Source: Rickettsiales bacterium
GTDB taxonomy: Bacteria; Pseudomonadota; Alphaproteobacteria; Rickettsiales; UBA8987
Length of the DNA: 64,000 bases
Direction of reading: 5' to 3'
Assembly: GCA_965222525.1 (NCBI GenBank)
Contig: OZ244955.1
Location: 256,025-320,024, forward strand
Made by a program: the position numbers and the translations under genes. Of the stretch, positions 8,482 through 64,000 are shown piece by piece. Below the pieces are notes generated by a model. That model ran no database searches, was not told the DNA's origin, and worked only from the letters and a program-made list of their open reading frames with translations. Within the stretch, counting starts at the first letter, position 1. Each line of letters begins with the position of its first letter.

Positions 8482-8686
8482 GGAGGGATGAGACCGCCCG
8501 ACCGTCGACTCTGTAATTCCTCGCGAGACCTGTATGTACAGGTGGGCGCCATATCACAAAAGCCATAGTCCAGGATTTACAAAATGTTACCTGAGCTAAC
8601 GCTACTTTTGTCAGGGACAGCTCCCTTCGAGAAAACGTTGCCTCCGGGAAAAAGCTATCTAACGTACCAGGCAGCTTCCTCACCCC
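8482..8686 (-). ncRNA. ssrS: Candidate 6S RNA
   Basis: Non-coding stretch immediately upstream of ygfA on the same strand, the conserved ssrS-ygfA arrangement. The 5' GGGGUGAG..GCUGCC pairs with the 3' GGCGGUCUCAUCCC as a closing stem. An internal ACAAAAG/CUUUUGU helix gives a long irregular hairpin. Ends are approximate. Confidence 0.45.
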
Positions 8687-55108: not shown

Positions 55109-57733
55109 CTACTGTGGCTGCAGAGCACCTCTAAAAGTCTCACCTTTTAGGCCTGGCCATTTCTTGTTACTTAGGTCAAGAGCACCTTTAGCTGCTGGGC
55201 CATACTTGTCCGGAATATACTCACTATTCAACTTAGGATCAGCTTCAATACCTGATGCCTCCCAACCTGGATTATAGTAGCTTTTCGTTTTTACGAAATA
55301 GCTGGATTTTTTGAAATCAGACAAACTAGAGAAGCTAATTTTTTGATCTCCATAATACAACTCCTTAAATACAGGGGCAGACAGATCTGTCCTGTGATAC
55401 AGATTACCATCAAGGATATGTGACCCTCCTTTTATTTGGCACTTTCCTAATATATGCTGCTCTTCCAACTCAACAAAAATGTTATTGTACATTTCATGTG
55501 GAAAATTAGAGTTTAACTGCTCTGGCCCAAAGTTTGAATAGTGGTAGCAGTTTCCCATACCATTATTGGAGGAGTATTTTTTACCAGAAATAACCGTATT
55601 ATGGTAGATTTTCCACGGATCAGGAGTTGTAATTCCTGACATGCTATGAGAGCCAAAACCAGATCCTGCAGCATACCCTGTTCCATCCGCTCCTTTCATA
55701 TGGCCCGACAACAAATTATGTGGGTCGGATCTTCCTTTAAATGTATATTGCGAAGCGTCAATAATATTATGGTGTATATATTTAGTTCCAGTATACCCAG
55801 GCTCTTGATCACCAGATCCATGCCATGAGAACCCTGCATGCACGCCTATTAGCTTATTATGGTGAATGTTGTAATTGTATCCGGCTGAACCCATTTGAGT
55901 TACGTCATCTCTGATGTTATAAAACTCATTATGATGAATATGTATATCATGGGCTTTATTTGTAAAGTTTATAGCATCAAAGGTATCCCTAAAAGTACTA
56001 TTTTTTATCTCAACATTATGGCCATCTATAGTTATGCCTGCACCTTGATAGCGATGCCCCGGCCTCCCTGAGCTTGGCCTCTTTACATCACTCCATGCTA
56101 TCCATTGTGGTACTTTGTCATCTATTATAATATTATCAAAAAGTATGTTATGCGAATGCTCTTGGACTCTTATAAAATACCTTCCAGCTTTAATTGACGA
56201 ATTCTTTACAATAATATTATTTGCACCACCCGGTAAAAATCTTAATGCCGTACCTCCATAACTAAAGTTTATACTTTCAAGTTTTATATATGATGAATCA
56301 CTACTAATCCTTATAATTTCATTTTCAGGAAAAACATACAATTTAGTTTTTCTAGGGTCGACATTAGTGGGATAGGATAAATTCATTTCATCTTTACCCT
56401 GGTATTTACTATGCTGTAATCGCACATATATCTTTTGATCATCTTTATTAAAGTATACTCCTGGCCCTATATAATAATCCTTGGTACCAAGGTAGTCCTC
56501 ATTGTTGGAACTAAACGGTACATAATCTTCATATGCAACAATATGATAGCCTCCATTATCTTCGCCCAAATAGGCATGTACGTAGTTAATATTTTTTGGG
56601 TATGTTTTAACGGAACGATAAATATTTTTCTTAGCATCAACAACTTCCCAATCAGCATTATCTACCTTTCTAAACTCTGAAAAGCCACCATCAATAATCG
56701 GTATCTCTCCGGGATACGCTTTTATAACTATAGGCTTATCTTTTGTTCCACTCACACCTATAAGAATATCACTTTCTCTATATACTCCTTCACGAATAAC
56801 CAAAGTATCTCCTGCACGAAGCTGATTAACTGCATGTTTTATTGTTTTCCAAGGCTTATCTTTTGTTCCAGAGTTATTGTCATTACCACCTGGAGAGACA
56901 AACAAGGCATTTTCCGGCAAAGATATGCACTTCGGATTTTCTATACATAAAGAACTTTGGTCAGAAATTTTAATGCCCCACTTACTTGAAAGGTAATTAT
57001 GTACTTGCGTAAGCTCAGAAACCTCTAACATGCGATCATACATTATTATTTCCGCAATGTATCCTTTTAACCTAGCTTTATTATCCAATCTACTATCTGT
57101 CTTATGTATAGAACCCAACGTTAAGCCATTTATATGTCTACTACCAAGATATCCTTTCACTATAGATTTTCCATCAATAAATGTTTCAGAGTGATGAGCA
57201 TTAAAAACAGTCGTAAATATTGCAGGGGTTAGAGAAATACTACCTCCTAAAGATAATTTTGCGCCTGCCCAGGAAAAGTCACCTTTACTATTGGAAAAGA
57301 GGGCATGTCTATAATTTCTGTTTATACCATCGTACAAATATGGCCGAAACCCCCGCTCACCACTTTTATCAAATTTAGCAACAACGAAAATTGTATTGGG
57401 TTGTTTTTTTATATTAGAAAATTTAGGAGTCTTTAGTAAATCACCGCCATCAAAGTGCAATACTGATATTCCATTTAAGCTCCTTATTCCATACGATGGC
57501 ATATATTTTGTGGATTTCTGAACTGCATCGTAATTATTCCCACTTTTATCTTTCCATACACTCACATAACCCTTACTATCCTTTATAAGAGTATTTACAT
57601 CTGCTGAGTCGAACCATACTACCAGATCAGATTGTACGGGAAGAGTCGCGCTTGCAAATGATCTTTCTACCGCCAGTAGAGAAAATGAAAAAACTAAAAG
57701 GGAAAAATATGCTACTATTTTGGAACTTTTCAT
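55109..57733 (-). CDS. Secreted LamG-like lectin domain + right-handed beta-helix protein (polysaccharide-active enzyme or adhesin)
   Basis: 874 aa. Signal peptide. N-terminal LamG pattern (LVVWFDSADVNTL..VSVWKDKSGNNYDAVQ...GYIAEIIMYDRMLEVSELTQVHNYLSSKWGI). Then DKPWKTIKHAVNQLRAGDTLVIREGVYRE and PbH1-like repeats (HNVEIKNSTFRD.., IHIHHNEFYNI..). The gene is strongly A+T-rich. Confidence 0.7.
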   Translation of the reverse strand: MKSSKIVAYFSLLVFSFSLLAVERSFASATLPVQSDLVVWFDSADVNTLIKDSKGYVSVWKDKSGNNYDAVQKSTKYMPSYGIRSLNGISVLHFDGGDLLKTPKFSNIKKQPNTIFVVAKFDKSGERGFRPYLYDGINRNYRHALFSNSKGDFSWAGAKLSLGGSISLTPAIFTTVFNAHHSETFIDGKSIVKGYLGSRHINGLTLGSIHKTDSRLDNKARLKGYIAEIIMYDRMLEVSELTQVHNYLSSKWGIKISDQSSLCIENPKCISLPENALFVSPGGNDNNSGTKDKPWKTIKHAVNQLRAGDTLVIREGVYRESDILIGVSGTKDKPIVIKAYPGEIPIIDGGFSEFRKVDNADWEVVDAKKNIYRSVKTYPKNINYVHAYLGEDNGGYHIVAYEDYVPFSSNNEDYLGTKDYYIGPGVYFNKDDQKIYVRLQHSKYQGKDEMNLSYPTNVDPRKTKLYVFPENEIIRISSDSSYIKLESINFSYGGTALRFLPGGANNIIVKNSSIKAGRYFIRVQEHSHNILFDNIIIDDKVPQWIAWSDVKRPSSGRPGHRYQGAGITIDGHNVEIKNSTFRDTFDAINFTNKAHDIHIHHNEFYNIRDDVTQMGSAGYNYNIHHNKLIGVHAGFSWHGSGDQEPGYTGTKYIHHNIIDASQYTFKGRSDPHNLLSGHMKGADGTGYAAGSGFGSHSMSGITTPDPWKIYHNTVISGKKYSSNNGMGNCYHYSNFGPEQLNSNFPHEMYNNIFVELEEQHILGKCQIKGGSHILDGNLYHRTDLSAPVFKELYYGDQKISFSSLSDFKKSSYFVKTKSYYNPGWEASGIEADPKLNSEYIPDKYGPAAKGALDLSNKKWPGLKGETFRGALQPQ

Positions 57734-57990: not shown

Positions 57991-58684
57991 TATAGTCCTT
58001 CCAAATAACTTCCGAATAGTTTAAGATTTTTGCGGCACCATTTTGCAGGTAGTAAGATGACATATATAGTATTTCCAATTTTAATTGGGAATACTATGAA
58101 GACCTGCGAAGCAGGGATTCCACCGCGCAAGCGAGTGTAATTTTACTTACGTAAAATTAGAAAATACTATAGTATTGATTTGTGCGAACGAGTTGTATCG
58201 TTTGTTTCTGGTGGTGGCAGCAAGCTTGAGGCCTCTCGTCGCTTTTCGGTCAGCGTCTGGTGCGTCAATGACTGGTGGTCTCGGGATGATTTACACCCCA
58301 AACCGCATGGTCGCAGACAGCGCAAACTGAACAGGGACGCTGTTAAGCGTCATTTCGAAGTTGTGTCCAAAATCTACTATAATTATGGACAATGCCGCAT
58401 TCCACAAAAAGAAGGATATTGTGGAGATGGCTGAAAAAGCAGGGCATGAAGCCATTTTCCTGCCTCCGTATTCACCAGACTTTAATCCCTTCGGGTATAA
58501 TTCCCCGCCCCTTGGGGCGAAAGAATAATATAATCCGAACTGATGCCCCGTAGCTTGCTACGGGGTAGTTCATTCCAATCGAAAAAGTCTTCGCTCATCT
58601 CAAAAAACAAAGGGCAAACGCTCCGCTTGGAAAACCAATCGACGACATAATCAAGTCATACGGAAATTATTTGGAAGGACTATA
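57991..58684 (+). mobile_element. Degraded IS630/Tc1-mariner-family insertion sequence (transposase pseudogene with internal deletion, frameshift and MITE insertions)
   Basis: Left TIR TATAGTCCTTCCAAATAACTTCCGAATAG at 57991; right TIR CGGAAATTATTTGGAAGGACTATA ending at 58684. An HTH-like N-terminal ORF spans 58180..58434. In another frame lies MDNAAFHKKKDIVEMAEKAGHEAIFLPPYSPDFNP (58385-58489). IEKVFAHLKKQRAN resumes at 58578 after an about 88-bp hairpin-rich insert. Total length is 694 bp. Confidence 0.75.
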
Positions 58685-59431: not shown

Positions 59432-60697
59432 ATGGATCAATTAAAAAAGACTTTACTTCTGGGTGCTTCGGCACTCGCTCTTGCTGTTACACCTGCATTT
59501 GCGGACGATAACGTAGATGACGGTATTGATGGCAATGAAAACAATGACAATACTGTTAACCAGGTTGGAGATGACAACAACTCTAACAATGGTGGCGGTA
59601 ATGACAACAACACCTCTGATAATGGAAATGACAATAACACTTCCGATAACGGAAATGATAACAACACTTCCAATAACGGAGATGACAACAATGACGGCAA
59701 TACTGTTGCTTCCGGCAATGGTTCTGGCGACGATGACAACGAAAACAATGCATTCTCCAAGAATGACATTGATACCGATGTTGACGCTTCTGACAATTCA
59801 GACAACAGCAATGACGGCAATGATAACAACACCTCTAATAATGGTGATGATAACAATGACGGCAATACTGTTGCTTCCGGTAACGGTGCTGGTGATGACG
59901 ACAACGAAAACAACGCTTTCTCCAAAAACGATGTAGACGTTGATGTTGACGCTTCTGATAACTCAGATAACTCCAATGACGGAAATGATAACAACACTTC
60001 CAACAATGGAGATGACAACAATGATGGTAACACCATTGCATCTGACAACACCTCCAATGACGGAAATGATAACAACACTTCCAACAACGGAGATGATAAC
60101 AATGATGGTAACACCATTGCTTCCGGTAACGATGCTGGTGACGACAACAACGAAAACAATGCATTCTCCAAGAATGACATTGATACCGATGTTGACGCTT
60201 CAGACAACAGCACCGGAAAAGGTGATGACAACAACGAAAGCAATGCATTCTCCAAGAATGACGTAGACGTTGATGCATCTGACAACTCTGATAATTCAGA
60301 CAACAGCACCGGTAAAGGCGATGATAACAACGAAACCAACGCCTTCTCCAAGAATGATGTTGATGTGAATGCCAGTGAAAATAATATGAATTCCAAAAAC
60401 ACTGACAACAGCACCAACACACTTACTGACAACAGCACTGACAGCAGCCAGGATGACAGCGTAAGCTTCGGCGATGCTAAAACCCTGACAGCTTCTGTTC
60501 TGGATGCTTCTGTTTCCGGAAACTCTGTTACAGTAGCAGTTGGTGGTGCCAGAAGAATTGGCGTCTATGAAGCTGACAACACCATCCAGGGAGATGCTTT
60601 CCGCAACTCCAGAGGTGTTAATGCTAACGCACAAAACACTGGTAACAGTGCAAGCGTTCAGCAAGCTATTACTATCAAGGCTGACATCCATAACTAG
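59432..60697 (+). CDS. Secreted Asp/Asn-rich tandem-repeat protein with C-terminal Gly/Asn/Gln module (P1)
   Basis: AAGGAG RBS. Signal peptide MDQLKKTLLLGASALALAVTPAFA. Five copies of N.NAFSKND[IV]D.DVDASDNS embedded in DNNTSNNGDDNNDGNT units. C-terminus DNTIQGDAFRNSRGVNANAQNTGNSASVQQAITIKADIHN. Confidence 0.8.
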   Translation: MDQLKKTLLLGASALALAVTPAFADDNVDDGIDGNENNDNTVNQVGDDNNSNNGGGNDNNTSDNGNDNNTSDNGNDNNTSNNGDDNNDGNTVASGNGSGDDDNENNAFSKNDIDTDVDASDNSDNSNDGNDNNTSNNGDDNNDGNTVASGNGAGDDDNENNAFSKNDVDVDVDASDNSDNSNDGNDNNTSNNGDDNNDGNTIASDNTSNDGNDNNTSNNGDDNNDGNTIASGNDAGDDNNENNAFSKNDIDTDVDASDNSTGKGDDNNESNAFSKNDVDVDASDNSDNSDNSTGKGDDNNETNAFSKNDVDVNASENNMNSKNTDNSTNTLTDNSTDSSQDDSVSFGDAKTLTASVLDASVSGNSVTVAVGGARRIGVYEADNTIQGDAFRNSRGVNANAQNTGNSASVQQAITIKADIHN

Positions 60698-60826
60698 TTG
60701 TAATTTCAACTATATGGGTGACTCTTGCTAGTCACGAGATTGTTGCGGGCGGGTATCCTGTGCTCCTCCTGCCCGCAGCAAAACAGATGATAGATGATGG
60801 ATTATAGATGATAGAGAAAGGGATTT

Positions 60827-60988
60827 TGTCATTCTGGCAAAAGCCGTACTTTTGCTGTTTCAGGATCCATTTGTCAAAACCCTGATAGCTGGCAATTCTG
60901 TAAAAATTATCAAAATGCGATTGTTGACCATAAACTACAAAAACCCTGCCATTGGATAAATGGATCCTGAAACAAGTTCAGGATGACA
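60827..60988. repeat. MITE-like element, family A variant with extra hairpin in left TIR
   Basis: TGTCATTCTGG[CAAAAGCCGTACTTTTGC]TGTTTCAGGATCCAT ... ATGGATCCTGAAACAAGTTCAGGATGACA; 162 bp. Confidence 0.85.
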
Positions 60989-61023
60989 GTTATTCCCTAA
61001 AAGGGTTTGCAAGGAAAAACAAA

Positions 61024-61488
61024 ATGGCAAAATTCAACCAAATAATACCGGTTCTGGCGGTCGGTACCGCTCTTGTTGCTGCTCCTGCAGCATATGCAGA
61101 GGAAACACAGATATACTCCATGCAATATATGGCGGTAGAGGATAATGACGCCACCTTCATACAGCATTCCGGTGTGATGGTAAAAGGCGGCGATGCCGAA
61201 GTGGAAATTACAATAGCAGATAATAATGAAGAGGAAACATTCGGCATGGTGATATCCGATGATGAATTACAAACATCACGAGGTGCCTCAGGTATTGAAA
61301 CTCTCAATGTTTCAATAATGAAGGCTACATCCAAGAATAACTCGGTGGGGGATAACTCGGTTACCGGCGATAATGTCATAAGCCAGGGTGCGTTCGGCAA
61401 TTCGCAGGGAGTTATAACTTCCGTACAGAACAGCGGAAATAACGTAACCATCCAGTCCTCAACTATCGTCAATATGTCGATTCAGTAG
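61024..61488 (+). CDS. Secreted protein with VISDDELQTSRGA motif and C-terminal Gly/Asn/Gln module (P2)
   Basis: The track ORF starts in the MITE (60952). I prefer the Met at 61024 (AAGGA RBS). Signal peptide MAKFNQIIPVLAVGTALVAAPAAYA. C-terminus DNVISQGAFGNSQGVITSVQNSGNNVTIQSSTIVNMSIQ. Confidence 0.75.
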   Translation: MAKFNQIIPVLAVGTALVAAPAAYAEETQIYSMQYMAVEDNDATFIQHSGVMVKGGDAEVEITIADNNEEETFGMVISDDELQTSRGASGIETLNVSIMKATSKNNSVGDNSVTGDNVISQGAFGNSQGVITSVQNSGNNVTIQSSTIVNMSIQ

Positions 61489-61511
61489 AGTCGGAGTTGC
61501 AATTTATTAAC

Positions 61512-61576
61512 TGTCACCCCGGACGCATATTTTCTCCAAATCGGAGATTTGGAGAAAATATGCGTCCGGGGTGACA
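61512..61576. repeat. Family B mini-copy (outer TIR hairpin only)
   Basis: TGTCACCCCGGACGCATATTTTCTCCAAATCGGAGATTTGGAGAAAATATGCGTCCGGGGTGACA; 65 bp. Confidence 0.85.
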
Positions 61577-61584
61577 AAGTGAGC

Positions 61585-62298
61585 ATGAATTCTATATCAA
61601 AAAAATTCCTGTTGATTTCTGCAGTTACAGCGGCGGTTACATTCACTTCAGGCCAGTCGGACGCAGCCAATATGCCGTTCTTCGGCGGTAACGGGTCGTT
61701 TAATGTAAAGGTGGAAAGCTACAAGGAAGCCCGGTTCCGTTCGGTAGTACGCCAGGATTATGATTTCAGTTGCGGTTCTGCTGCTGTGGCTACCTTGCTC
61801 AAATATCACTACGACCATCCTGTAGAGGAGAAGGAAGTACTGGATGCCATGTTCGAGGATGGCGACAAGGAAAAAATCAAGAGCAAGGGCTTTTCCATGC
61901 TTGATATGAAAAACTTCCTCAAAAACAAGGGATATTCCGCTGATGGCTACCGTACTGCGCTGGACAAGCTGACCGAGGTCGGAATCCCCGCAATCGTGCT
62001 GATTAACAATAACGGCTATATGCATTTCGTGGTGGTCAAGGGGGTGGATAAGGAAAATGTACTGGTCGGTGACCCTTCGCTCGGCAAAAAGGTTATGGCC
62101 AGGGATGAATTCGAGAAAATGTGGAATGGCATATTGTTCGTAATCAAGAGCCATAAAGCGGTCGGAAATCAATATTTCAACAGAAAAAAGGACTGGCGGC
62201 TGTATCAGGAAGCCCTGTTCGATTCGGCACTAAGCAATGAATCGCTGGCAAACTTCACGATACATATACAACCGGCACCGAATTATTTTAATTTTTAA
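61585..62298 (+). CDS. Periplasmic (signal-peptide-bearing) C39-family cysteine peptidase
   Basis: I prefer the Met at 61585 (the track start 61549 lies in the repeat). Signal peptide MNSISKKFLLISAVTAAVTFTSGQSDA. Q57-x5-C63 (VRQDYDFSCGSAAVATLL), H147 (GYMHFVVVKG) and D163 (VLVGDPS). Confidence 0.8.
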   Translation: MNSISKKFLLISAVTAAVTFTSGQSDAANMPFFGGNGSFNVKVESYKEARFRSVVRQDYDFSCGSAAVATLLKYHYDHPVEEKEVLDAMFEDGDKEKIKSKGFSMLDMKNFLKNKGYSADGYRTALDKLTEVGIPAIVLINNNGYMHFVVVKGVDKENVLVGDPSLGKKVMARDEFEKMWNGILFVIKSHKAVGNQYFNRKKDWRLYQEALFDSALSNESLANFTIHIQPAPNYFNF

Positions 62299-62299
62299 A

Positions 62300-62410
62300 T
62301 GTCATCCTGAACTTGTTTCAGGATCCATCTACTACGGGAGTTTAAGAATACAAGAGCCAAGAAATCAGGAAATTTCCTGCATTCTTATTTTCCTGTATTC
62401 TTAAGTTCTT
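62300..62410. repeat. Truncated family A element interrupted by family E palindrome
   Basis: 62300-62328 is the family A left TIR TGTCATCCTGAACTTGTTTCAGGATCCAT. 62333-62410 is GAGTTTAAGAATACAAG...CCTGTATTCTTAAGTTC with self-complementary ends; a related fragment lies at 35090-35128. Confidence 0.7.
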
Positions 62411-62442
62411 TTTCAACCACCAACCAATGAAAGGGTCGTAAA

Positions 62443-63099
62443 ATGTACAAAAAGCAAGGTAAGCATATTAAATCCAGTTTAGGTATTTGTTCTGTTATCG
62501 CTCTGATGGCGATATCGTCAGGCGCAGACGCTACTCCCGAAATGAGTGCATATGAATCATATGATTTCACCGCTCATAATAATGTTATATCCGACCCCGA
62601 ATTGGATAAAATGCGCGGGGGTTTCCTGTTCTCCAACGGTCTGAAAGTCGATTTCGGTATATCAATACAGACAATGGTTAATGGTATATTGGTACGTGAG
62701 CTTAACCTGTTCAGCGACCGGCTGGATGAGGTAAATCCTGACGAATTGCAAACAGTGATTCAGGTAGGTAATGGTAATATCGCAGGTGGTGGTAATCCGT
62801 CAGACAGTATGCCAAATGATAGTGGTGCGACAAATGGACAAGGAGTCCCGCAGGTTCAGGCAAATACCGTGCAGAATCAGGTTAACCATGTAGCCGCACC
62901 TGATATAACCGTACATAACGGTATTGCACTGGGTAATATCCCCGGCCTGTCAACAATTATACAGAATAATGTGGATAATGCATTGATCCAGCAGTTTAAC
63001 GTGATGGATGTTAAAGTAAGCGGTTTTAGCGGTTTCAGGATGCAGAACCTGACCCCGATCCTCAACCACCAGGCTATCAATGGTGTTAATGGTTTCTAG
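62443..63099 (+). CDS. Secreted protein with VISDPELDKMRGG motif and Gly/Asn/Gln module (P3)
   Basis: Signal peptide ..ICSVIALMAISSGADA. The motif is at residues 48-60. Later comes GNIPGLSTIIQNNVDNALIQQFNVMDV. Confidence 0.75.
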   Translation: MYKKQGKHIKSSLGICSVIALMAISSGADATPEMSAYESYDFTAHNNVISDPELDKMRGGFLFSNGLKVDFGISIQTMVNGILVRELNLFSDRLDEVNPDELQTVIQVGNGNIAGGGNPSDSMPNDSGATNGQGVPQVQANTVQNQVNHVAAPDITVHNGIALGNIPGLSTIIQNNVDNALIQQFNVMDVKVSGFSGFRMQNLTPILNHQAINGVNGF

Positions 63100-63188: not shown

Positions 63189-64000
63189 TCAGAAATCACT
63201 CGACCCGCTGCTTTTCTTCAGGGATACCCCTCCTGTGGGGTCGGCAAAAAACTCCCCGCCCTGCTTCATTTTCAGATTAAGGTTGCTTGCATTATCGGCT
63301 TCTGCCAAAGCAACTTCCTTGGTAATCATACCTTTATTATACAAATCCAGCAGGCACTGATCTAATGTTTGCATCCCAACATCCCTGCTTTTTTCGATAG
63401 TATCCTTTAGTTCTTTAATTTTTCCTTCTTCTACCAAGGCTTTTATCAAACCTTCATTTATCATTATTTCATACGCCAGCACATGATGGCCGTTTTTGCC
63501 CTCAACCAGACGCTGTGACACAACACCTACCAGATTTTGCGACAGGGTTGTCAGAATTTGTTTATGTAATTCCTCGGGGAACAGGTTGATTATACGCTCA
63601 ATAGTCTGGTTGGAGTTGTTGGAGTGTAAAGTGGAAATGACCAGGTGACCGGTCTCGCAAAAAACCAGTGCATTCTCCATAACTTCACGGTCACGTATTT
63701 CCCCGATAACCATTACATCAGGACTCTGGCGCAGGGCATTCTTCAATGCAATGCCGTAGGAATAGGTATCAATACCGATTTCCCGCTGGGTAAACAGGCA
63801 GTTTTTATGATGGTGATAATACTCCACTGGGTCTTCTATAGTTACAATATGACCCTCGCCCACAGTATTACGATGTTCCAGCATTGCAGCCATCGAGGTG
63901 GATTTTCCCGAGCCGGTTGCCCCCACAACTAGCACCAACCCACGCTTCTTCATTATGAAATCCTTGTATATACCCGGCAGACGTAATTCCTCAAAGCTGG
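63189..64000 (-). CDS. PilT/PilU-family type IV pilus retraction ATPase, 5'-partial (PilU-like C-terminus)
   Basis: The frame is open past the Met at 63953 to the window edge (..SFEELRLPGIYKDFIMKKRGLVLVVGATGSGKST). Walker A, DPVEY, VMVIGEIRD and GHLVISTLH motifs are present. Confidence 0.85.
   Translation of the reverse strand, partial: SFEELRLPGIYKDFIMKKRGLVLVVGATGSGKSTSMAAMLEHRNTVGEGHIVTIEDPVEYYHHHKNCLFTQREIGIDTYSYGIALKNALRQSPDVMVIGEIRDREVMENALVFCETGHLVISTLHSNNSNQTIERIINLFPEELHKQILTTLSQNLVGVVSQRLVEGKNGHHVLAYEIMINEGLIKALVEEGKIKELKDTIEKSRDVGMQTLDQCLLDLYNKGMITKEVALAEADNASNLNLKMKQGGEFFADPTGGVSLKKSSGSSDF

Follow-up and report, generated by a model that had tools for sequence, protein, structure and literature searches.

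A stretch of 64,000 nt from the genome of a Rickettsiales bacterium (contig OZ244955.1), referred to below as the window, carries near its end and on the forward strand a cluster of four genes that encode a free-standing C39 cysteine peptidase and three further proteins, here called P1, P2, and P3. These four genes probably represent the cargo-and-peptidase module of a two-step secretion system of the Fap type, in which proteins pass the inner membrane by Sec and then the outer membrane through a channel, and the system would belong to a large, uncharacterized sister family of Fap. Fap itself is the functional-amyloid system of Pseudomonas and Aeromonas (fapABCDEF), which includes the repeat subunits FapB and FapC, the periplasmic C39 peptidase FapD, FapE, and the trimeric outer-membrane channel FapF.

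The peptidase and its gene cluster

The four open reading frames (ORFs) lie on the same strand at the coordinates proposed in a preliminary description of this DNA, and all are intact (Table 1). The ATG start codons of P2 and of the peptidase lie within slightly longer ORFs that open with TTG, and the P2, peptidase, and P3 sequences are identical to recorded proteins of one contig of 2,114,217 bp. Every N-terminus has a basic n-region, a hydrophobic core (Kyte-Doolittle maximum over 12 residues, 2.2-2.7), and an AxA-type site (AFA-D, AYA-E, SDA-A, and ADA-T), and the Sec-type signal peptides of the preliminary description are thereby borne out, as judged by eye and hydropathy; they span aa 1-24 in P1, 1-25 in P2, 1-27 in the peptidase, and 1-30 in P3. 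Scans of the cluster for promoters and terminators yielded nothing better than shuffled sequences.

The peptidase (237 aa) matches the Pfam family Peptidase_C39 (PF03412; 2.6e-25), and a Pfam scan and sequence analysis revealed no fusion to an ATP-binding cassette (ABC) transporter and no transmembrane or ATPase domain. Its top match in NCBIfam is FapD, the fibril-amyloid maturation endopeptidase (2e-50, 171 bits), followed by FilB of Acinetobacter (4e-38; 131 bits, cut-off 475). The equivalog cut-off of FapD is 330 bits; the Fap cut-offs of NCBIfam are centered on Pseudomonas, and the canonical FapD of Aeromonas, with 249 bits, is also under it. An alignment of 20 homologs shows no variation at Q57, C63, H147, or D163, and for this reason the catalytic Gln/Cys/His/Asp set and its spacing, Q57-x5-C63...H147-x15-D163, had been given correctly in the preliminary description; C63 is the sole cysteine of the protein. 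The homologs of the peptidase number 2286. In a rough neighbor-joining tree with FilB as the root, all 82 members of the clade group to the exclusion of Aeromonas FapD, which lies at a median BLOSUM distance of 0.73 from the clade; the corresponding value for the window peptidase is 0.55.

Double-glycine leaders in the FapE-like proteins

P3 is composed of its signal peptide, a 30-residue propeptide with a canonical double-glycine leader at its end, a mature N-terminus that is conserved (FLFSNGLKVDFGISIQ), a degenerate copy (aa 164-190) of a module found also in P1 and P2, and a P3-specific tail. The window P3 alone has no match in Pfam or NCBIfam. The hidden Markov model (HMM) of its family, on the other hand, matches the canonical FapE of Aeromonas caviae at 3.6e-7, and hhalign places the family against the same protein at 2.1e-5, pairing "SDPELDKMRGGFLFSNGLKVDFGISIQ" with "ADGELAHLRGRYVSSHGI-SYFGIEF," that is, the leader and an FG motif; the FapE model of NCBIfam is matched by 6 of 71 P3-family members (best 2.3e-4). 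On these profile comparisons, P3 is a remote homolog of FapE.

The leader of P3 matches the C39 recognition rule position by position. According to this rule, the leader carries Leu-12, Glu-8, Leu-7, and Val-4, its residues -4 to -11 form a helix of two turns, and the cut is made after Gly-Gly, Gly-Ala, or Gly-Ser (PMC6363468); the predicted cleavage of P3 is after G60 and before F61. The element L...RG is present in 71 of 81 P3-family members and L...RGG in 67. In an alignment anchored only on L...RG, the family has V/A/L/I at -12 (97%), most frequently S at -11, D at -10 (52%), E at -8 (50%), L/M at -4 (58%), G at -1 (94%), and F at +1 (80%). Among 3128 background ORFs, six contain the strict pattern [LIVM]xxxELxx[LIVM]xG[GAS], and P3 is the only one to have it across the last 14 kb of the window. 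The preliminary description, which dealt with the same four genes, had missed the double-glycine leaders of P3 and P2, the best clue to the role of the peptidase.

P2 and P3 are paralogs (HMM cross-matches, 1e-5 to 1e-22), and the P2 HMM also matches Aeromonas FapE (4.5e-4). In P2, the signal peptide is followed by a propeptide with a degenerate leader of the double-glycine type at its end and by a single C-terminal module. This leader fits the double-glycine rule save at -4, and Gly-Ala is an accepted variant of the double glycine (PMC6363468); it is predicted to be a recognition element for the C39 peptidase, with possible cleavage after G87-A88. The logo of the P2 family has V/L/A/I at -12, E at -8, L at -7, R at -3 (62%), G (61%) or A (38%) at -2, and a variable residue at -1. 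The mature P2 would comprise about 66 aa with a net charge of -1, without cysteine and rich in N/Q/S/T. An AlphaFold (AF2) model of P2, computed from an alignment of 41 sequences, is disordered (predicted local distance difference test [pLDDT] score 48.6), and its only structured part, a helix of aa 79-84, falls inside the leader. A profile search of the PDB with the P2 family returned noise only (E 0.086 and 1.9) and no FapC, and a match of P2 to Shiga-toxin B in library scans was spurious. The propeptide of the window P2 (aa 26-76, nt 61099-61251; QIYSMQYMAVEDNDATFIQHSGVMVKGGDAEVEITIADNNEE) is about 40 residues longer than in most members of the family.

Elements that resemble the leader are also seen in the cargo of related systems. 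The repeats of Aeromonas FapB (L082, 5194-5700) open with "ALSNIRG" or "ALSQNRG," with the L...RG spacing of the P2 and P3 leaders, and Acinetobacter FilA (L083, 5754-6623) has "MDDAALSAATGQ" straight after its signal peptide. Cargo of all systems of the FapD/FilB type may share such an element, or the leader may be derived from half a repeat.

The shared C-terminal module and P1

The preliminary description had proposed that P1, P2, and P3 share a C-terminal module, and cross-matches of HMMs seeded with P2 or with the C-terminus of P1 (P1c) support this. P1 is matched by the P1c HMM (3e-13, aa 311-420) and the P2 HMM (3e-08); P2 by the P2 (4e-27), P1c (1e-21), and P3 (8e-18) HMMs; and P3 by the P3 (6e-27), P2 (4e-10), and P1c (9e-04) HMMs. 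The core of the module, QNSGNNV.IQ.STIVN, is invariant in 41 P2 homologs. A profile of 121 C-termini, aligned by hhalign with five FapB/C repeats of Aeromonas, scores 20.9 (P 1.7e-4, 34 columns); column shuffles of the Fap repeats (n = 200) score 8.2 ± 1.7 with a maximum of 15.0, none reaching 20.9, and reversed repeats score 8.3. At the profile level, the module of P1 and P2 thus resembles the Fap repeats beyond compositional bias. FapB is the sole NCBIfam family that proteins with the module match recurrently (E 4e-4 to 1.5e-3; 2 of 73 P2-like and 3 of 8 multi-module P1-like proteins), and P1 and P2 themselves match neither FapB nor FapC of NCBIfam. The module of single-module proteins is located at the extreme C-terminus, both in the 121 aligned C-termini and in every listed match of the P2 family. 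Multi-module P1-like proteins carry 6 to at least 12 tandem modules (L002, L006, L030, L038, and L059), the largest being the L038 protein, with 1684 aa and 20 stretches of the module; amyloids built of repeats have a similar organization.

P1 contains a long low-complexity region rich in Asn and Asp (24% N and 19% D in P1), which is encoded by tandem repeats of 27, 81, 96, and 165 bp, and a single C-terminal module like a Fap repeat. No double-glycine leader was found in P1, and only 3 of 37 P1-like proteins have the L...RG motif. The sequence N-terminal to the module is hypervariable and of low complexity among P1-like proteins, and D/N-rich homologs of P1 occupy the syntenic place at two other loci (L001 and L004). 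P1 is preceded by a strong Shine-Dalgarno sequence (AAGGAG) and is a candidate for the main cargo or a surface-displayed subunit. Its exact sequence is absent from a collection of 15 billion proteins, in which P2, the peptidase, and P3 of the same contig are present; P1 may be uncalled or may have a different start in the public annotation.

Gene order and distribution of the family

A survey of one genome per species of GTDB, in which ORFs were searched iteratively with HMMs, gave 80 loci and, with L001, a total of 81. In 78 of the 81 loci, the C39 gene directly follows a P2-like gene, and in 78 it directly precedes a P3-like gene, which agrees with the expectation of the preliminary description that proteins with the module would be found beside C39 homologs. 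A gene for a full-length FapF-like channel is present in the flanks of 71 loci, and nine of the 10 others have short flanks; the median distance between the end of the C39 gene and the start of the fapF-like gene is 724 bp (58 loci with the latter downstream). One or more P1-like genes are found at 28 of the 58 loci that have more than 2.5 kb upstream. The order [P1-like]-P2-C39-P3-[FapF-like channel] recurs in about 80 genomes. At L001, the nearest informative locus, which comes from a Rickettsiales metagenome-assembled genome (MAG), the order is a FapF-like outer-membrane protein, a 714-aa D/N-rich protein, a 128-aa P2-like protein, the C39 peptidase, and a P3-like protein; the last four are homologous to the window genes, and the outer-membrane protein matches FapF of NCBIfam over its full length (1.1e-42).

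The hosts are Alphaproteobacteria (Rickettsiales, Rhodospirillales, Kiloniellales, Paracoccaceae, and Caulobacterales), Betaproteobacteria (Duganella, Massilia, Cupriavidus, and Thiobacillus), and Gammaproteobacteria (Methylobacter, Marinobacter, Thioalkalivibrio, and Lysobacter), as well as Geobacter, Desulfopila, Bdellovibrionota, and a few MAGs of other phyla. The P2 family comprises 1564 representatives of clusters at 50% identity at E ≤ 1e-3, and 1120 at E ≤ 1e-10; nearly all of these have a length of 100-240 aa and carry the module C-terminally, and none of the P2 homologs has a name or a Pfam domain. The window therefore holds a member of a large and distinct sister clade and not a one-off cluster. 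In 2013, Fap was reported from Beta-, Gamma-, and Deltaproteobacteria only, and HMMs of FapD and FapF were called unspecific (PMC3792158); co-localized fapD and fapF homologs in five further phyla were noted in passing in 2018 (PMC6173800).

A FapF-like channel elsewhere on the chromosome

The window contains no FapF-like ORF (tblastn, best E 0.78), as had been noted before. With the FapF-like protein of L001 as the query, a protein of 455 aa (P0185) with 53% identity was found on the same 2,114,217-bp contig. P0185 matches FapF of NCBIfam at 6.9e-51 over profile positions 17-420 of 420, and FilC at 9.4e-21. Its AF2 model (pLDDT 80, above 90 in the barrel) shows a signal peptide, a helix (41-95), a disordered linker, and a beta-barrel, and the top PDB matches of this model are the Pseudomonas FapF structures 5O65, 5O67, and 5O68 (E 4e-21, target-normalized template-modeling score 0.82, 26% identity), the next being the COG4313 channel 4RL8. 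Both the profile match and the predicted fold indicate that P0185 is a FapF homolog, and the channel of the window cluster is probably encoded elsewhere on the same chromosome. The secretion system appears to be complete in this genome but split, because P0185 is on the same chromosome and outside the window. Residues 88-97 of P0185, "ESLEQYRATG," at the end of the coiled coil, resemble the leader motif; the idea that FapF-like proteins are a second target of the C39 peptidase was dropped, since L...R[GA] is present in only 12 of 36 homologs.

Relation to known systems

The canonical comparator was the fapBCDEF operon of one Aeromonas caviae chromosome in a plasmid collection, whose proteins match the FapB, C, D, E, and F models, yet below the Pseudomonas-centered cut-offs. 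Matches in Photobacterium and Vibrio plasmids were rejected as canonical Fap because they belong to the P2/P3 family instead, and Aeromonas therefore stays the only canonical comparator. In the cluster, as in Fap, the C39 peptidase stands free, has a Sec-type signal for export, and keeps its Cys/His pair intact, and the gene directly downstream codes for a FapE-like protein that has the N-terminal region EL..xRG-[FY]....G...FGI in common. A predicted FapF-type channel with a coiled coil, a linker, and a barrel of the 12-strand type, the model of which finds FapF as its top PDB matches, an N/Q-rich module akin to the FapB/C repeat (G.AF....G..V....G..N), and the order subunit(s)-D-E-F in related loci are further likenesses. 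By contrast, canonical FapD falls outside the clade in the rough tree, the scores are far under the equivalog cut-offs (FapD, 171 vs. 330; FapF, 173 vs. 700), and the FapB, FapC, and FapE models do not match the window proteins. The subunits have one module, or 6-20 in other genomes, as against three repeats in Fap (GN-x-G-N-x2-AG-x2-NQQ-x-N), an extra FapE-like paralog (P2) is encoded upstream of the peptidase, and the channel gene is unlinked in the genome of the window. The leader here is a canonical G-G leader, whereas published work says that Fap proteins are without canonical C39 sites, and the family is found in Alphaproteobacteria and other lineages without an earlier report of Fap (PMC3792158). 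The ORF list shows no fifth gene on the same strand in the cluster, and no fapA-like gene was seen, although FapA itself was not searched for specifically; the Aeromonas operon is also without an obvious fapA. FapA is often absent from Fap operons. On the balance of these sequence comparisons, the cluster appears to be a sister family of Fap and not a strict member of fapABCDEF. The preliminary description had offered a choice between a divergent, minimal Fap-like system and an undescribed periplasmic processing system: the likeness to Fap stands, through FapD, FapE, FapF, and the repeat, and the word minimal does not, with P0185 on the same chromosome.

The preliminary description had also named FapD as the one stand-alone C39 homolog beside secreted repeat proteins, a position now shared with FilB/FilC of Acinetobacter and NapP/NapF of Neisseria. 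The Fil system (filABCDEF) resembles the window system in its stand-alone C39 (FilB) and FapF-like outer-membrane protein (FilC), encoded next to a secreted fiber subunit, and in the L...xG element that FilA carries straight after its signal peptide; it is a further pair of the FapD/FapF type, tied to a real pilus fiber in Acinetobacter. Unlike in Fil, genes for FilD (FadL-like), FilE, and FilF are absent here, the scores are far below the FilB and FilC cut-offs, FilA has no detectable similarity to P1, P2, or P3, and the HMMs of these three proteins match none of FilA, FilD, FilE, and FilF. In the nap island of Neisseria, genes for the C39 peptidase NapP and the FapF homolog NapF flank the genes for the GG-motif peptides NapA-C (PMC11798529), and a C39 peptidase and a FapF-type channel thus likewise accompany substrates with double-glycine motifs. 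However, the Nap substrates are small, cationic, microcin-like promoters of autolysis, whereas P2 and P3 have a neutral or negative charge, are rich in N/Q, and carry a Fap-like module, and the window peptidase and NapP are only about 36% identical (over 158 aa). The C39 fold family and the Q/C/H/D set are also common to the peptidase-containing ABC transporters (PCAT/AMS; ComA, LahT, and PCAT1), and the P3 leader obeys their rule of Leu-12, Glu-8, Leu-7, hydrophobic-4, and Gly-Gly. In contrast to those transporters, the window peptidase has a signal peptide, no fused ABC transporter, and a predicted periplasmic location, the leader is internal, behind a Sec signal peptide, and export would proceed via an outer-membrane barrel and not a type I system. 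A resemblance to curli, suggested earlier, was rejected: the curlin-repeat models of Pfam and NCBIfam match none of P1, P2, and P3 at E ≤ 1, and no CsgG signal was seen, CsgG not having been searched for specifically.

Proposed mechanism and alternative explanations

In the mechanism that we propose, Sec would carry all four proteins across the inner membrane, and the FapD-like C39 peptidase would recognize, in the periplasm, the helical double-glycine leader behind the signal peptide, cutting P3 after G59-G60 and probably P2 after G87-A88. This processing would allow P3 and P2, together with P1, which has no leader, to leave in unfolded form through a trimeric, 12-stranded FapF-like channel, which in this genome would be P0185. 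Outside the cell, the Fap-repeat-like modules would stack the subunits into a beta-rich fiber or surface layer, on which the long, acidic Asn/Asp-rich region of P1 would be displayed.

Several points weigh against this scheme. When the four proteins are searched against profile HMMs, as the preliminary description had suggested, the peptidase matches its families (C39 of Pfam and FapD), and neither Pfam nor NCBIfam gives a usable match for P1, P2, or P3; what ties them to FapE and FapB is a set of family profiles, at modest E-values of 1e-3 to 1e-7, and a single canonical operon, that of Aeromonas. At the equivalent site, the canonical FapE of Aeromonas reads R-G-R instead of R-G-G, and the second glycine of the P2 leader is poorly conserved, for which reasons the motif could serve for binding and not mark a cut. 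P1 and P2 have one module each as against three imperfect repeats in FapB and FapC, and the disordered AF2 monomer of P2 provides no fold to back an amyloid reading. The FapF-like gene is not linked to the window cluster, and the only other assessable locus of this kind is L002, the only other one that has flanks of 9.9 kb or more on either side but no FapF-like gene. Moreover, the signal peptides were assessed by inspection and hydropathy.

It is conceivable, albeit rather unlikely, that the same machinery of the FapD/FapF type serves a different end, in which the module is a tag for secretion or anchoring that the channel recognizes or that inserts at the cell surface, P1 a highly acidic, hydrophilic passenger at the surface, and P2 and P3 accessory factors of secretion and not structural subunits; P1-type proteins might then form, for example, a cation-binding or adhesive coat. 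The location of the module at the extreme end of the 121 aligned C-termini, its single copy in P1 and P2, the hypervariable low-complexity regions that precede it in P1-like proteins, and the predicted disorder of the P2 monomer would all suit a tag, and FapE has been speculated to initiate or activate secretion rather than to build the fiber (Rouse et al., PMC5557850). The similarity of the module to the amyloid repeats of FapB/C argues against a tag, and the several P1-like proteins in which 6 to at least 12 tandem modules make up nearly the whole chain are better explained by a repeat that stacks. The export of bacteriocin-like or autolysis peptides after the manner of Neisseria Nap, with P2 as a double-glycine peptide that the C39 peptidase would mature and a FapF-like channel would release to act on other cells or on the producer, is improbable. 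The arrangement of the nap island (PMC11798529; L086) and the GG-type leaders of P2 and P3 are in its favor, as are weak matches of a few P3-family members to GG-bacteriocin models (E 0.04-0.08). However, the mature P2 is not cationic, lacks cysteine, and is N/Q/S/T-rich; its core is near-invariant among 41 homologs and shared with large repeat proteins, whereas toxins usually diversify; no immunity-like gene is present in the cluster; and the peptidase is closer to FapD (171 bits) than its identity to NapP would suggest.

A decaying, non-functional remnant, whose channel gene was lost through a rearrangement mediated by an insertion sequence (IS), is very improbable indeed. Fragments of an IS630-family transposase do lie about 900 bp upstream of P1, outside the secretion system, the separation of the FapF-like gene from the cluster is unusual within the family, and the exact P1 sequence is missing from the protein collection that contains its neighbors. 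Such decay is hard to reconcile with four intact ORFs, conserved catalytic residues and leader motifs, the strong Shine-Dalgarno sequence of P1, and an intact FapF-like protein of 455 aa on the same chromosome. For the cluster as an active module, it is plausible that the IS630 remnants are the trace of a rearrangement that separated it from a FapF-like gene, a link that we infer.

Other features of the window

The transposase fragments upstream of P1 are degraded and lie in different frames. Farther upstream, a gene on the opposite strand encodes a secreted right-handed beta-helix protein; this gene has probably been acquired horizontally, because its segment has only 33% GC as compared with about 46-48% elsewhere. 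Downstream, and convergent with P3, is a gene for a type IV pilus ATPase of the PilT/PilU family, which is cut by the edge of the window and not truncated, because its frame is open up to the last base. A 6S (SsrS) RNA is the sole Rfam match in the window, and no tRNA genes were found in it.

Table 1. Positions of the features discussed; nucleotide numbers refer to the window, except in the last three rows, which refer to the locus named
Feature	Position	Strand	Description
P1	59432..60697	+	421 aa ORF, intact
P1 module	60575..60694	+	aa 382-421, DNTIQGDAFRNSRGVNANAQNTGNSASVQQAITIKADIHN
P2	61024..61488	+	154 aa ORF, intact
P2 leader motif (predicted)	61252..61287	+	aa 77-88, I-S-D-D-E-L-Q-T-S-R-G-A, ISDDELQTSRGA
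P2 module	61366..61485	+	aa 115-154, GDNVISQGAFGNSQGVITSVQNSGNNVTIQSSTIVNMSIQ
C39 peptidase	61585..62298	+	237 aa ORF, intact
Q57/C63 codons	61753-61779	+	catalytic residues
H147/D163 codons	62023-62073	+	catalytic residues
P3	62443..63099	+	218 aa ORF, intact
P3 double-glycine leader (predicted)	62587..62622	+	aa 49-60, I-S-D-P-E-L-D-K-M-R-G-G, ISDPELDKMRGG
IS630-family transposase fragments	58180..58528	+	degraded; HTH_Tnp_IS630 1.2e-7, DDE_3 5.9e-13, different frames
Secreted beta-helix protein	55109-57733	-	874 aa; right-handed beta-helix, pectate-lyase or chondroitinase-B-like region
PilT/PilU-family type IV pilus ATPase gene	63189-64000	-	convergent with P3
6S (SsrS) RNA	8487-8680	-	58.7 bits
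Multi-module P1-like gene, L038	4245-9299		many tandem modules; among the products of the three genes, up to 1684 aa with 12-20 repeats of ~70 aa
Multi-module P1-like gene, L002	7453-9477		as above
Multi-module P1-like gene, L006	6757-9387		as above

Implications for Fap-type secretion

FapD is essential for the secretion of Fap amyloid, and the literature searched (PMC5557850, PMC6173800) does not establish its substrate; the later papers covered add nothing on this point. According to published work, the C38A mutation of FapD abolishes the secretion of FapC, FapE alone is without N-terminal peptides in whole-cell mass spectrometry, and no canonical C39 sites are reported for the canonical Fap proteins. 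In the present family, a canonical GG site sits exactly at the position of FapE. This textbook double-glycine leader makes the FapE-like member a likely substrate for periplasmic peptidases of this class, and because it is conserved in about 70 genomes, the idea that FapE is the substrate of FapD becomes directly testable. No description of the P1, P2, and P3 cargo families, of their module, or of a GG leader on FapE-like proteins was found in the literature searched. It is tempting to speculate, if only tentatively, that the P2-C39-P3-FapF family represents an ancient, widespread, and distinct form of "C39-gated" outer-membrane secretion, in which FapE-like proteins would be the universal double-glycine substrates of periplasmic C39 peptidases, removal of their leader would open the FapF-type channel, and P1 and P2, with one module each, would polymerize as a true intermolecular cross-beta fiber.

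As Fil and Nap demonstrate, cargoes of other kinds are also handled by C39/FapF pairs. The finding is not categorically new; it is a large unannotated family that offers a direct handle on the question of the FapD substrate. If the C39-gated reading is true, it would settle what FapD cleaves and would provide the first system of the Fap type in Alphaproteobacteria, Rickettsiales-like lineages included. The family extends the range of machinery of the Fap type well past the Beta-, Gamma-, and Deltaproteobacteria reported in 2013. More than 1500 representatives of clusters of small, "hypothetical" P2-like proteins, together with their repeat-bearing relatives, gain a provisional role, and the single- and multi-module proteins supply natural variants of Fap-like repeats for work on amyloids and biomaterials.

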